Shown in pieces: positions 3,190-5,267 of a stretch of DNA of 64,000 bases. The notes under the pieces are model-generated. The model did no database searches and was not told the DNA's origin. It saw nothing but the letters and a program-made list of their open reading frames with translations. Both the position numbers and the translations under genes were made by a program. The stretch's first letter is position 1. Each line of letters starts with the position of its first letter. This stretch comes from an uncultured Gammaproteobacteria bacterium (lineage in GTDB: Bacteria > Patescibacteriota > Microgenomatia > Daviesbacterales > UBA10151), in NCBI GenBank assembly GCA_964392925.1, contig CAYMRP010000001.1, positions 165,585 through 229,584 on the forward strand. The letters are read 5' to 3'.

Positions 3190-4104
3190 ATGTATATTAC
3201 ACCTATGGCTGACAGAAAAACATTCCATCCTGAATTATATAGAGACGCTGCTATCCCTTTGTGGGAGAGGTCCAGAATTATAAAAGATCATATAGAGAAA
3301 TCCCTAATAACAGAGTCGAGTGAAAGATCTCTCCTTATGGGTTTTTCAGATCTTAGATTTACCTGGGGTCGTTATAACCGTAGCCAGGAGCGGGAGTTCG
3401 AGCTTCTCGAATGGGAAAGGCAAAGACAAGCAGTACTCATTGCAGGTATAGCCTCCGGTTTAGGAATTAAAGAGCAGGATTGCTTCGATTTACTTCCGGA
3501 CAAATTTCCTGAGCGGTTAGAATCTTATAATAGATTAGGACTGGACACCCCTCTACTCGTTCCCAGGTTTACGAGAGTATCATGGGCAAGCGCTGTTCAT
3601 GCAGCAAGCGAGACAACTTTTTATCCTGAGGCGGTAACATTAGATTATGATCTAGATCCTTCTAGGGTTGGGGAATGGCAGGATCCGAGAGGTGTTAAGA
3701 TCCCCCAGCAACCTTTCGCGACATGGATAAAGATCCCTCCTGTTGTTCAGTATGATATTTATCCTGATAAAGACTCTCTCCAGCGAATTCGCAATCCGGA
3801 AATAGACGAAGTTGCCGAAGCTCCGGCAATTGCAAGAGTTATATTAGATCCCGATGCTAGAGGTGCAACTCACTGGGATGGACTAGCCTTGGGCTCTTTG
3901 AGGAGGGAATCAGCCCCCATAAGATTCACAGCAATGAATCTTCATGATCTAATAGGGTCGCGAATAGGAGAATATGGTGTTTTATCCTTACGTAAACCCC
4001 TCTCGGATGGAGGACCTTCCTGGCTAAGCAGGACACACATAGATGATGATCCAGAACAAAGAACGCCGGTTATCTGTAGCAGAGAAGTAACTACGAGACA
4101 ATAA
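3190..4104 (+). CDS. hypothetical protein, G+C-richer orphan (likely real start at 3205 MADRK...)
   Basis: Long ORF with visibly higher G+C than neighbours; TTGACT-16-TATATT promoter-like element just upstream; stop codon fused to a 21-bp copy of the tRNA-Asp 3' end. Confidence 0.5.
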   Translation: MYITPMADRKTFHPELYRDAAIPLWERSRIIKDHIEKSLITESSERSLLMGFSDLRFTWGRYNRSQEREFELLEWERQRQAVLIAGIASGLGIKEQDCFDLLPDKFPERLESYNRLGLDTPLLVPRFTRVSWASAVHAASETTFYPEAVTLDYDLDPSRVGEWQDPRGVKIPQQPFATWIKIPPVVQYDIYPDKDSLQRIRNPEIDEVAEAPAIARVILDPDARGATHWDGLALGSLRRESAPIRFTAMNLHDLIGSRIGEYGVLSLRKPLSDGGPSWLSRTHIDDDPEQRTPVICSREVTTRQ

Positions 4105-4122
4105 ATGCGAGACCGACGGGAC
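4102..4122. repeat. 21-bp direct repeat copy of tRNA-Asp 3' end (taaatgcgagaccgacgggac); second copy 4231-4251
   Basis: Identical 21-mer at 4102-4122 and 4231-4251; the second copy is the genuine 3' end (T-stem/acceptor) of the minus-strand tRNA-Asp. Confidence 0.8.
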
Positions 4123-4201: not shown

Positions 4202-4230
4202 AAAAAAGCCCAGACAAGCTGGACTTTTTG
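4202..4230. terminator. bidirectional intrinsic terminator (A-run, short GC hairpin, T-run)
   Basis: aaaaaagcccagacaagctggactttttg lies between the convergent ORF 3190-4104 and tRNA-Asp. Confidence 0.45.
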
Positions 4231-4236
4231 TAAATG

Positions 4237-4508
4237 CGAGACCGACGGGACTCGAACCCGCGACCTCCTCCGTGCATGAAATCCAATACTTTCGTAATGG
4301 CATGGACTATATCTTCACCTTTCCTAAAAGGTTTAGGTGCTTCGGTATCTAGTCTCTACGGCGCTCCGCCAAATTCTGGCGGTTCCCACGGTGTTCACAT
4401 ATCTTTCGACTTAGTCTTCACCGTTATCCCGAAATTATTCATCCTAAAGTTTCCTTTAGAAGCTGCACGTCTACAGGGAGGCGCTCTAACCAACTGAGCT
4501 ACGGCCTC
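4237..4508 (-). tRNA. tRNA-Asp (anticodon GUC) interrupted by a 198-nt group I intron; exons 4473-4508 and 4237-4274
   Basis: Exon 1 gaggccgtagctcagttggttagagcgcctccctgt and exon 2 cacggaggaggtcgcgggttcgagtcccgtcggtctcg-g rejoin to a canonical tRNA with anticodon loop CUGUCAC. 3' half matches E. coli tRNA-Asp (GGUCGCGGGUUCGAGUCCCGUC); discriminator G73. Confidence 0.8.
4275..4472 (-). ncRNA. group I intron (small IC3-like, Azoarcus tRNA-Ile-intron-like) in anticodon loop between tRNA positions 35/36
   Basis: 5' exon ends in U; intron begins AGACGUGCAG with GCAG able to pair with exon CUGU (P1, U-G at splice site); intron ends in G. Contains GUAGAGACUAGA, the element found in the P7/J8-7 region of the Azoarcus intron; no ORF inside. 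Confidence 0.7.
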
Positions 4509-4528
4509 TCGCAACTATGCCATATCCC

Positions 4529-4556
4529 ACGCTCTGCGCGCTGAGCTACGGCCTTA
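4529..4556 (-). repeat. degenerate duplicate of tRNA-Asp 5' region (acceptor/D-arm: ggccgtagctcag..gagcg)
   Basis: ctgagctacggcc and gctct blocks repeated 43 nt upstream of the real tRNA 5' end; overlaps last codons of the LAGLIDADG ORF. Confidence 0.6.
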
Positions 4557-5244
4557 AAATACTTTTCAAACCTTTATCATACTTCAGCCTTTTTCTTTCT
4601 AGGTGAGGTAAAACTAAATTAGGGTATAAAAAGTCATACAATTCTACAACATCCTTTCCACTATAAGCAAGGCTATAGGCACCGCTATGGAAATATAATG
4701 ATCCCACACCTATCCCCAATAATGCTGCTATCTTGGATCGTATGGTTTCCAAAAAAATCCTATTGCCGCATCTAAGATTCAAAATAAAATAATTGATCAC
4801 TCCCGTCCTGTCTTTTCTTGCTGAACTATTAAAGTAAATTGAACCATCTCCATCAAAATATCCTCTGATAAAATGTCCGAGAAATGAGTCTGGGATAGGG
4901 GGGAATATTAACGTTTTACTTTTAGCTGGAGTAAAACCAATCTCACCAAATCTGTTAAATAGTTTCTTGCTTCCAATTTGGAGAGAATAACTAGTTTTAA
5001 AATTACCTGCTCGTTTATAGACCTCTATTTTATTAGTTAATTTTAATAATATTTGGATGGTTAATATAAGCTGATAATCAGTTGAAGTAAAAGCCACATA
5101 ACAAGATCCCCTCTTGTTCTTATACATGCACCCATCAGATGCAAAAAGACCTAAGACATATGCACACTCAGCTGACCAAGTATTAAAGAAGCTTTCCACA
5201 TATCTTGGATTTAGGATCATCCCTTTGCATATTTTACCACTCAA
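4546..5244 (-). CDS. LAGLIDADG homing endonuclease (double-motif, free-standing)
   Basis: Two dodecapeptide motifs: LGLFASDGCMY and IRGYFDGDGSIY; size 232 aa typical of monomeric two-domain LAGLIDADG enzymes. Confidence 0.8.
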   Translation of the reverse strand: MSGKICKGMILNPRYVESFFNTWSAECAYVLGLFASDGCMYKNKRGSCYVAFTSTDYQLILTIQILLKLTNKIEVYKRAGNFKTSYSLQIGSKKLFNRFGEIGFTPAKSKTLIFPPIPDSFLGHFIRGYFDGDGSIYFNSSARKDRTGVINYFILNLRCGNRIFLETIRSKIAALLGIGVGSLYFHSGAYSLAYSGKDVVELYDFLYPNLVLPHLERKRLKYDKGLKSILRP

Positions 5245-5267
5245 ATCTAAAGTGTTATATTGTCAGT

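Follow-up and report, generated by a model that had tools for sequence, protein, structure and literature searches.

A free-standing LAGLIDADG homing endonuclease gene in the promoter and leader position of an intron-containing tRNA-Asp gene of Patescibacteria

Introduction

Homing endonuclease genes (HEGs) which stand outside introns are best known from phages. SegB of phage T4 is a free-standing, site-specific endonuclease encoded in a tRNA gene cluster, and its cleavage of recipient DNA leads to preferential inheritance of the tRNA gene region and the markers flanking it (PMC2330249). In collaborative, or trans, homing, described for F-CphI and the psbA intron of cyanophages and for MobE and the I-TevIII intron of T4, the double-strand break made by a neighbouring HEG is thought to mobilise a group I intron (PMC6083498, PMC2790892). 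In Patescibacteria, tRNA-Asp and tRNA-Asn were reported by Nakagawa et al. in 2026 to carry group I introns at position 35/36; the tRNA introns there are 184-894 nt long with a mean of 257 nt, and self-splicing in vitro was demonstrated for a tRNA-Asp 35/36 intron (PMC13011429). Three published genomes have an intron in tRNA-Asp, namely GCA_001029755.1 (at 698,633), GCA_030583725.1 (at 183,136, minus strand) and GCA_023898525.1, and 15 introns are known in tRNA-Asn. In that study HEGs were sought only inside the introns; most of the introns had none and their mobility was regarded as limited (PMC13011429). An adjacent free-standing LAGLIDADG gene is not mentioned there. LAGLIDADG HEGs are also present in rRNA insertions of CPR bacteria (PMC11270868).

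In this work we have investigated a LAGLIDADG gene next to an intron-containing tRNA-Asp gene in a 64 kb stretch of DNA, referred to below as the window. Like SegB, the window HEG is free-standing and sited at a tRNA gene. SegB, however, is a GIY-YIG enzyme of a phage, whereas the window HEG is a LAGLIDADG gene on a bacterial chromosome whose ORF, unlike that of SegB, abuts or overlaps the 5' end of one specific tRNA gene, an arrangement conserved throughout its family. As with F-CphI and MobE, it lies beside a gene carrying an endonuclease-less group I intron, but in those pairs the hosts are phage protein-coding genes and the enzymes are Endo VII-like or HNH, whereas here a cellular tRNA gene and a LAGLIDADG enzyme are involved, and most members of the window family have no intron partner at all. 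The window intron shares phylum, tRNA and site (U35|C36) with the introns of Nakagawa et al. and is of similar length; its insertion site had thus already been published for other genomes (PMC13011429). The closest matches of the protein, I-DmoI and I-Tsp061I, are likewise single chains of about 200-230 aa with two motifs, to which its identity is about 20-24%, but they are encoded within archaeal rRNA introns and target rDNA, while the genes of the window family stand outside introns and accompany tRNA genes.

Results

The HEG lies on the minus strand at 4546..5244 and encodes 232 aa when read from a TTG at 5244 to the stop codon TAG at 4548-4546, an ATG at 5220 (224 aa) being the likelier start. 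The protein exceeded the Pfam cutoffs for both LAGLIDADG_3 (4.5e-15, 56.1 bits; cutoff 22.5) and LAGLIDADG_1 (1.1e-5, 26.7 bits; cutoff 23.1), and its two motifs, LGLFASDG and GYFDGDG, contain the catalytic aspartates D37 and D133, which were both invariant when 37 homologues were aligned. I-Tsp061I and I-DmoI were matched in a profile search of the PDB. The AlphaFold2 model (pLDDT 92.6, pTM 0.88) has the doubled alpha-beta-beta-alpha-beta-beta-alpha fold with the secondary-structure elements in the expected order, and its best Foldseek matches in the PDB were I-Tsp061I, E-DreI (an I-DmoI/I-CreI chimera) and I-AniI at E of about 1e-10, with I-DmoI also among the top matches in a set spanning 1e-10 to 1e-8. 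A preliminary description of this DNA had proposed a two-motif LAGLIDADG protein encoded outside the intron, directly upstream of the intron-containing tRNA-Asp gene on the same strand. The Pfam hits, the confident model and the Foldseek matches uphold the first part of this proposal and the gene layout agrees with the second. As judged from the sequence and the model, the ORF is an intact, monomeric two-motif enzyme of the I-DmoI type, which would presumably cleave DNA site-specifically at a long target of about 18-22 bp, as is characteristic of its class.

The tRNA-Asp(GUC) gene begins 38 nt from the end of the HEG (4546 to 4508), with the HEG upstream. Its 5' exon, from G1 to U35 (4473..4508, minus strand), is the same as in the intronless alleles L175 and L179 and terminates in the U needed for the P1 U.G pair. 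A probable group I intron of 198 nt (4275..4472, minus strand) follows in the anticodon loop at position 35/36, and the 3' exon (4237..4274, minus strand) runs from C36 to the discriminator G73 and then CA. The predicted splice junctions read ...CCCUGU|AGAC...CAUG|CACGG; the intron starts with AGACGUGCAGC, its internal guide UGCAG pairs with CUGU|A and its last base is G. Once joined, the exons match at 100% identity the intronless tRNA-Asp of L175 and L179, which ARAGORN recognized as Asp-GUC. The intron has no endonuclease ORF, the longest open frame on its sense strand being 27 codons. With 41.5 bits (E 5e-9) against Rfam RF00028 it did not reach the gathering score of 50; introns at the same site in the HEG-adjacent tRNA-Asp genes of L111, L168 and L173 scored 52.5-82.2 bits. 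On the 3' side of the tRNA a hairpin resembling an intrinsic terminator, AGTCCAG-CTTGT-CTGGGCT followed by TTTTTT, was read by eye (4202..4225, minus strand); a stricter terminator scan of the window did not list it.

Partial copies of the tRNA are present on both sides of the gene. The last codons of the HEG had been described as overlapping a degenerate 25-nt copy of the tRNA 5' end, and this could be confirmed with bounds 4554->4530: the pseudo-fragment (4530..4554, minus strand) corresponds to tRNA-Asp positions 2-26, lies 47 nt upstream of the genuine 5' end and holds the HEG stop codon. It is made up of an exact AGGCCGTAGCTCAG, a CGCGC replacing the D-loop and then AGAGCG. The exact 14-nt core AGGCCGTAGCTCAG was found twice in the whole window (4554->4541 and 4507->4494), where shuffled sequences lead one to expect none. 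Between the pseudo-fragment and the genuine tRNA there is a filler of 21 nt, TGGGATATGGCATAGTTGCGA (4509..4529, minus strand), whose 3' end resembles the ends of native leaders (...cgacga|G) in HEG-less alleles. In the window, then, the stop codon of the HEG is set apart from the functional tRNA by a duplicated tRNA 5' end of 47 nt. A second exact duplication, absent from the preliminary description, is a 21-nt copy of the tRNA 3' end and trailer, GTCCCGTCGGTCTCGCATTTA (4102..4122, minus strand), 129 nt downstream of the tRNA, where it overlaps the stop codon of a plus-strand ORF (3190..4104). No trace of an intron was seen beside either copy. The two fragments occur separately in relatives which lack both HEG and intron: L174 has a homologous 5' pseudo-fragment with the filler and no 3' fragment, and L175 has only the 3' fragment. 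Both are therefore older recombination scars, and the GTCCCGTCGGTCTCGCATTTA copy is independent of HEG and intron. The same distribution led us to reject a nested tRNA, in which an old gene would have been split by a new intron-bearing copy and its outer 5' and 3' fragments left behind. An integrase-type island at the tRNA 3' end was also considered and rejected: the repeat is present, but only 108 nt separate its copies, there is no integrase and the adjoining ORF304 has no family match.

The HEG belongs to a large and apparently undescribed family, for which 917 cluster representatives were counted at E<=1e-30. We compared about 90 related loci, at 31-72% identity, and the ORF was full-length in essentially all of them. 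Of the 93 untruncated HEG loci counted for tRNA adjacency, about 88 have the HEG abutting the 5' end of a tRNA or overlapping it. The partner is an intronless tRNA-Asp in 56 of the 93, an intron-containing tRNA-Asp in about 18, tRNA-Cys in nine and tRNA-Leu in three, and only about five loci have no adjacent tRNA; some 80% of the partner tRNAs are intronless, which ties the HEG to the tRNA 5' boundary and not to the intron. Intronless tRNA-Asp genes adjoin the homologues of L008, L011, L021 and L048 and those of about 50 metagenome loci. The HEGs of the closest relatives, L003 and L007, end ...AGG CCG TAG within the genuine tRNA, the TAG being tRNA positions 8-10, and those of L008, L010 and L011 overlap the tRNA in other reading frames. 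Among database homologues, the C-terminal peptides are translated tRNA 5' ends. The clades of the HEG tree match tRNA species, with separate clades on tRNA-Cys and tRNA-Leu, and each clade is specific for one tRNA species. In L049 and L026 ORFs of a second nuclease family, GIY-YIG, run into tRNA-Asp in the same way, which makes them the nearer analogues of SegB. These data change the picture given in the preliminary description, which had taken LAGLIDADG genes to be normally borne by introns or inteins and so saw the layout as exceptional: in this family the free-standing state is the rule. Its suggestion that the HEG had escaped from the intron or invaded beside it is countered by relatives whose HEG abuts tRNA-Asp with or without an intron and by the sister clades on tRNA-Cys and tRNA-Leu, the constant partner being the tRNA 5' end.

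What does the locus look like without the HEG? The synteny PolX|tRNA-Asp|LysM was found in 41 HEG-less loci and in nine HEG-carrying lineages. A search among relatives for an uninterrupted tRNA-Asp locus had been suggested, and all 41 HEG-less loci proved to be such empty sites, consisting of a promoter followed by an intronless tRNA-Asp gene, two of them (L175 and L179) with exons identical to those of the window. The HEG is present in five of about 50 species-level Daviesbacteria genomes and absent from four of the seven closest relatives. L007, which has both HEG and intron, and L174, which has neither, are 93.6% identical in PolX; their homology stops just after the stop codon of ORF87 and restarts at tRNA -1/+1. 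Close relatives thus differ in whether they have the HEG at this one locus, and its borders are the stop codon of the upstream gene and tRNA -1/+1.

The HEG stands in place of the promoter and leader which the tRNA would otherwise have, and it is flush with, or usually overlaps, the tRNA 5' end. A promoter-like site within 80 nt of the tRNA +1 was found in 27 of 41 HEG-less loci vs seven of 51 HEG-carrying loci (p=3e-7), the two sets coming partly from different lineages. In L007 the HEG begins 13 nt past ORF87, at a place where L174 has a terminator and the tRNA's own promoter. Neither by eye nor by scan was a consistent internal tRNA promoter found in the 3' coding end of the HEG, and the conserved leader element X of the HEG-less alleles had no match in Rfam. 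A consensus promoter within 120 nt upstream of the HEG was present in only 16 of 78 loci. In the window, a sigma-70-like candidate, ATAACA-16-TG-TAAAAT (5231..5258, minus strand), lies in the short spacer between PolX and the HEG; judged by its consensus match only, it would yield a leaderless or nearly leaderless HEG mRNA from near the ATG at 5220.

The 35/36 group I intron occurs only in HEG-carrying alleles of the Daviesbacteria set. In the PolX-anchored loci it is present in five of nine HEG-carrying lineages and in none of the 41 HEG-less loci (Fisher p=6e-5), an association which reflects few independent events, in at least two clades of this set. Since 35 nt lie between the HEG junction and the intron, the two elements would be expected to be inherited together even if no functional link existed. 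Intron-containing partner tRNAs are scattered across the HEG tree.

The divergence of the HEG is incongruent with that of PolX for some genome pairs, as in L010-L011 (HEG 55%, PolX 74%) when compared with L010-L025 (both 73%). Identical copies excepted, HEG pairs share at most 73% aa identity, and in no genome pair was the HEG more similar than PolX, so recent horizontal transfer is not demonstrated; much of the distribution could be the result of vertical descent and many losses. The pseudo-fragment shared by the window and L174 runs against the PolX phylogeny, which indicates recombination at the locus. A classical cycle of invasion, decay and loss predicts some decayed HEG pseudogenes. None was found in the empty sites with the family HMM on six-frame translations, a search which did detect an extra C-terminal HEG fragment in L021; what looked like HEG remnants in L049 and L026 were the GIY-YIG ORFs.

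Discussion

The anatomy of the locus leads us to consider it fairly probable that the window HEG is a free-standing, tRNA-targeted homing endonuclease which is co-transcribed with the tRNA and carries the intron along. The CPR/Patescibacteria HEG family to which it belongs occupies the position of promoter and leader at a particular tRNA gene, in this Daviesbacteria-like bacterium that of tRNA-Asp(GUC). The enzyme may cut HEG-less alleles in or beside the tRNA gene, and repair of the double-strand break would then copy the HEG in, an intronless homing similar to that of free-standing phage HEGs. The intron has no HEG of its own and lies 35 nt from the junction; it could be carried by co-conversion, that is, by trans or collaborative homing. 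A promoter upstream of the HEG would drive transcription of HEG and tRNA together, and the tRNA would be freed by RNase P, whose cut would in most family members remove the stop codon of the HEG.

Could the anticodon loop itself be the target? In classical collaborative homing the enzyme would recognise the 35/36 site of intronless tRNA-Asp, the intron would protect HEG-carrying genomes, and the tRNA 5' end would be merely the nearest neutral site for the HEG. The confinement of the intron to HEG-carrying alleles and the precedents of F-CphI/psbA and MobE/I-TevIII (PMC6083498, PMC2790892) are in favour of this, as is the identity of the exons between alleles with HEG and intron and relatives with neither, since only the intron would then disrupt a 35/36 target. 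We regard it nevertheless as unlikely, because about 80% of the family adjoins intronless tRNAs and the canonical tRNA-Asp genes of L011 and L021 would be self-targets. No consistent protective substitutions are seen: the odd D-arms of some HEG-carrying tRNAs, which we had considered as self-immunity, are of types (GTGAACCGGTCATCAC, GTGTAACGG and others) that are common in HEG-less genomes too. The alternative raised in the preliminary description, a tandem tRNA duplication in which the 25-nt fragment is a second, partly deleted tRNA/intron copy and the HEG incidental, draws on the copying of positions 2-26 at 47 nt upstream and of 21 nt of the 3' end at 129 nt downstream, which on the surface resembles an old tRNA split by a new copy. 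It is, however, largely refuted, and we give it hardly any credence: L174 and L175, both without HEG and intron, have one fragment each, that of L174 with the homologous filler; neither fragment adjoins intron sequence, and the HEGs of L003 and L007 meet the genuine tRNA at this same junction, with the TAG inside that tRNA and no duplicate.

Two further readings concern a HEG that no longer moves. It may have been domesticated, serving the host for instance as a maturase of the tRNA intron or by binding DNA or RNA in the expression of tRNA-Asp. It would then be understandable that its divergence roughly follows that of PolX and is never lower, that the ORFs are intact over about 90 loci, that HEG and tRNA gene are so closely coupled and that the structural matches include LAGLIDADG maturases (I-AniI, bI3). 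Yet a host function sits badly with a gene found in five of about 50 Daviesbacteria species-level genomes and missing from four of the seven closest relatives; both catalytic aspartates are invariant, most partner tRNAs are intronless and homologues of the 35/36 intron need no protein for self-splicing in vitro (PMC13011429), and domestication seems to us improbable. Somewhat less so, if still quite doubtful, is an intact but immobile relic, inserted long ago, inherited vertically and repeatedly lost, with no current homing, which would persist only since its deletion would take the tRNA promoter away. Such a relic is consistent with the HEG being more similar than the flanking genes in no pair, and with the missing tRNA promoter of HEG-carrying alleles, where an imprecise deletion would be lethal. 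Promoter capture leaves unexplained, however, the conserved catalytic residues and the full-length ORFs over 31-100% identity, and both the incongruent HEG and PolX distances and the recombination implied by the pseudo-fragment common to the window and L174 argue against it.

If the tRNA-targeted, co-transcribed homing endonuclease is the correct reading, how far can it be extended? We suggest, quite tentatively, that a widespread CPR family of LAGLIDADG enzymes, specific for tRNA genes, has captured the promoter and leader slot of single-copy essential tRNA genes. In that case the host could not delete the HEG without silencing the tRNA, translation of the HEG, whose stop codon sits in the mature tRNA, would for that reason compete with processing by RNase P, and the same enzymes would spread in trans the "HEG-less" group I introns which Patescibacteria have at 35/36.

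Standard tools miss tRNA-Asp genes split by introns, and the adjoining ORFs are without names in public data, which is of consequence for annotation. The overlap of ORF and tRNA implies an unusual coupling of expression, in which the stop codon of an mRNA lies in the tRNA excised by RNase P. The family also represents a reservoir of natural meganucleases, whose specificity is likely to be for strongly conserved sequences of tRNA genes. Free-standing and collaborative homing, documented mainly in phages, would be extended by this locus to bacterial chromosomes, LAGLIDADG enzymes and tRNA genes, and the adjacent HEG suggests a concrete and testable route by which the "endonuclease-less" tRNA introns of Patescibacteria may have spread.

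Results

We have investigated a homing-endonuclease gene (HEG) that the preliminary description had placed upstream of an intron-split tRNA-Asp, with its last codons in a duplicated fragment of the tRNA 5' end. This arrangement was confirmed by Pfam, a structural model, the two copies of a 14-mer and the identity of the joined exons. The ORF (5244 to 4546, minus strand) matches both LAGLIDADG_3 and LAGLIDADG_1 with scores above the curated cutoffs. Its AlphaFold2 model, made with 37 homologues as input and confident (pLDDT 92.6), has a doubled alpha-beta-beta-alpha-beta-beta-alpha fold, and the top PDB matches are I-Tsp061I, E-DreI (an I-DmoI/I-CreI chimera) and I-AniI, which are matched by sequence profile too. 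Throughout the family alignment neither catalytic aspartate, D37 or D133, varies; judged from sequence and model, this is an intact LAGLIDADG enzyme. A profile search with the family gave 917 cluster representatives at E<=1e-30. In some members of about 310 aa (P0026-P0029, P0032, P0033) about 85 helix-turn-helix-like residues with weak Sigma70_r4_2 and Terminase_5 matches are added at the N terminus, perhaps as an additional DNA-binding domain.

The stop codon TAG (4548-4546, minus strand) lies inside the 14-mer AGGCCGTAGCTCAG, which has exactly two copies in the 64 kb window, with 0 expected by chance; the other copy forms the genuine 5' end of the tRNA-Asp(GUC) gene. This gene is called by neither ARAGORN nor the Rfam tRNA model because a 198-nt group I intron (RF00028, E 5e-9, score below gathering) interrupts the anticodon loop between U35 and C36. 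In minus-strand order, the 5' exon (4508 to 4473), the intron (4472 to 4275) and the 3' exon (4274 to 4237) are followed by a terminator-like hairpin (4225 to 4202). The intron boundaries are fixed by the joined exons, which are 100% identical to the uninterrupted tRNA-Asp genes of two relatives, L175 and L179, where a sigma-70 promoter and a leader precede the tRNA. A plus-strand 87-aa ORF antisense to intron and tRNA (4234..4497) is almost certainly spurious.

Relatives of the flanking PolX/PHP polymerase are encoded in genomes of Candidatus Daviesbacteria (Microgenomates, CPR), and the identical HEG and locus were found in one Logan contig and in GCA_020050275.1. The conserved gene order is PolX(-) / HEG(+) tRNA-Asp(+) ... 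LysM(+). In HEG-less Daviesbacteria species (PolX-anchored loci L016-L067) the tRNA-Asp occurs between LysM and PolX in both orientations (about 15 '+' and about 23 '-'), and by its gene table the HEG-bearing metagenome contig P0007 has the module seemingly inverted relative to its neighbours.

The duplicated fragment is absent from the nearest HEG-bearing relatives, L003 (69% identity) and L007 (72%), where the ORF ends ...AGG CCG TAG CTC AG and the stop falls on positions 8-10 of the genuine tRNA. The overlap extends to more distant homologues: the same TAG is used in L008 (57%), the ORF of L010 (52%) terminates GGG TCG TAG, and that of L011 (53%) extends 23 nt into the tRNA, up to the D-loop TAG. 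Since L008, L011, L021 and L048 lack the intron, the overlap is independent of it. Scanning metagenomes with the family alignment added 80 loci of 31-48% identity. When these were pooled with the earlier loci, the partner at the ORF 3' end in the 93 untruncated ones was an intronless tRNA-Asp in 56, an intron-containing tRNA-Asp in about 18, tRNA-Cys(GCA) in 9 and tRNA-Leu in 3; about 5 had no adjacent tRNA. Offsets between ORF end and tRNA peak at -10, -15 and -23 nt, the first in-frame stops within a tRNA, and the C-terminal peptides of database homologues (RP, GP, GS, GLEV, WGRSSIG, MRS, GVA, HVAK...) are translated tRNA 5' ends. In a neighbour-joining HEG tree the tRNA-Cys and tRNA-Leu(GAG) partners have their own clades and intron-containing partners are scattered. 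What characterises the family is a free-standing LAGLIDADG gene that abuts one particular tRNA gene at the 5' end, and the partners are clade-specific.

A second nuclease family, GIY-YIG, sits at the same tRNA-Asp spot: an 87-aa ORF in L049 (5381..5644, minus; Pfam 2.5e-16) reaches into the tRNA 5' end, its stop after ...LGP being the TAG of the tRNA, and a truncated one lies at the same position in L026 (5105..5290, minus). In L021 an extra piece matching the HEG C-terminal region (1899-1690; HMM positions 189-213) lies directly upstream of the full HEG and overlaps the PolX start region.

Empty sites have sharp boundaries. With the same synteny, 38 species-level genomes have a HEG-less, intronless tRNA-Asp and only L021, L024, L025, L034 and L048 bear the HEG; the window's closest relatives by PolX (80-83% identity) are HEG-less. 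The contrast is sharpest between L007 and L174, which share 93.6% identity in the PolX protein and read ORF87, HEG, tRNA(intron) and ORF82, terminator hairpin, promoter, leader element X, pseudo-fragment, intronless tRNA, respectively. Homology is lost directly after the ORF87 stop and regained at tRNA -1/+1, so the HEG takes the place of the native promoter and leader of the tRNA. A promoter-like site within 80 nt of tRNA +1 was found in 27/41 HEG-less against 7/51 HEG-bearing loci (p=3e-7); HEG-bearing alleles have lost the tRNA's own promoter. The promoter evidence is one-sided, because only 16/78 HEGs have a consensus promoter directly upstream; the window's candidate is ATAACA-16-TG-TAAAAT, just 5' of ATG 5220.

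In one subclade a small conserved ORF of 82-87 aa (L007 1217-1480; L174 3689-3937), membrane-like and without a Pfam match, stands between PolX and the HEG or tRNA. The HEG of L007 begins 13 nt past the stop of this ORF, a spacing that suggests an ORF87-HEG-tRNA operon. In HEG-less Daviesbacteria alleles (L174 3590 to 3496; L178 108 to 14; L179 2466 to 2372; partly L017 and L018) the sigma-70 promoter is separated from tRNA-Asp +1 by the conserved element X of about 85-110 nt, which fills the slot held by the HEG in other alleles. Element X has no Rfam match, and a stem-loop that includes 3 compensatory pairs is predicted by RNAalifold from 3 sequences.

Discussion

What is the origin of the duplicated tRNA fragments? 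The 25-nt pseudo-fragment (4554 to 4530, minus strand), with its 21-nt filler, is homologous to a stretch (aGCCGTAGaTCAGCGCGtAGcGCG...GATACGGCA...) of L174, which has neither HEG nor intron. The X/pseudo-fragment junction of L174 is exactly the X/real-tRNA junction of L178 and L179, and the window's HEG/pseudo-fragment junction is exactly the HEG/real-tRNA junction of L003 and L007; the matching junctions therefore mark the pseudo-fragment as an old duplication of the junction, later joined to different upstream modules. Its presence in the window and L174 and absence from L007 conflict with the PolX tree, a distribution which points to recombination at the tRNA-Asp locus. About 110 nt downstream of the tRNA, its 3' end and trailer are repeated exactly over 21 nt (4122 to 4102, minus strand). 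This copy is conserved in L175 (about 1822-1842), which has neither HEG nor intron, and is decayed in L003; it is independent of the HEG. Right at its end ORF304 (3190-4104; 304 aa, GC 44.6% vs 38.9%, no family match) is inserted. The copy may be an att-like scar or hotspot, but no integrase is present. A partial 3' copy also follows an inserted 287-aa ORF in L010 (about 4452).

The type and site of the window's intron are already published: 35/36 group I introns are known in tRNA-Asp and tRNA-Asn of Patescibacteria, and self-splicing was demonstrated in vitro (Nakagawa et al. 2026, PMC13011429). The search for HEGs in that study was confined to the introns, whose mobility it judged to be limited; its supplement is without flanking information. 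In our comparison the intron is restricted to HEG-bearing alleles, occurring in 5/9 PolX-anchored HEG-bearing lineages against 0/41 HEG-less loci (BLAST and Rfam scans; Fisher p=6e-5). Since these counts represent few independent events and HEG and intron are only 35 nt apart, the pattern indicates linkage, not dependence. The short contig L145 has, just upstream of a HEG/tRNA-Asp pair, another group I intron (297-510; 56 bits) and a tRNA (668-741), so intron-bearing tRNAs may be clustered.

How could such a gene spread? Most probably the enzyme would cut the tRNA gene of HEG-less alleles or the DNA next to it, and repair of the break would then copy the HEG into the cut allele, an intronless homing in which the nearby intron would be co-converted. 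HEG and tRNA would share one transcript from which RNase P frees the tRNA; this cut would take away the HEG stop codon in most family members, and the 47-nt duplication in the window would uncouple the stop codon from tRNA release. HEG and PolX distances are incongruent (L010-L011 55% vs 74%; L010-L025 73% vs 73%). However, HEG identity never exceeds PolX identity in any genome pair and no HEG pseudogenes were seen, and both count against current mobility.

Phages provide known cases of free-standing HEGs and of collaborative or trans homing: SegB of the phage T4 tRNA cluster (PMC2330249), MobE/I-TevIII (PMC2790892) and F-CphI (PMC6083498). LAGLIDADG genes that abut tRNA genes were not described in the full-text literature searched, whose coverage is incomplete, so that an earlier description is possible. 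The chief interest of the arrangement is that the mobility of CPR tRNA introns becomes testable and that the overlap of ORF and tRNA is conserved.
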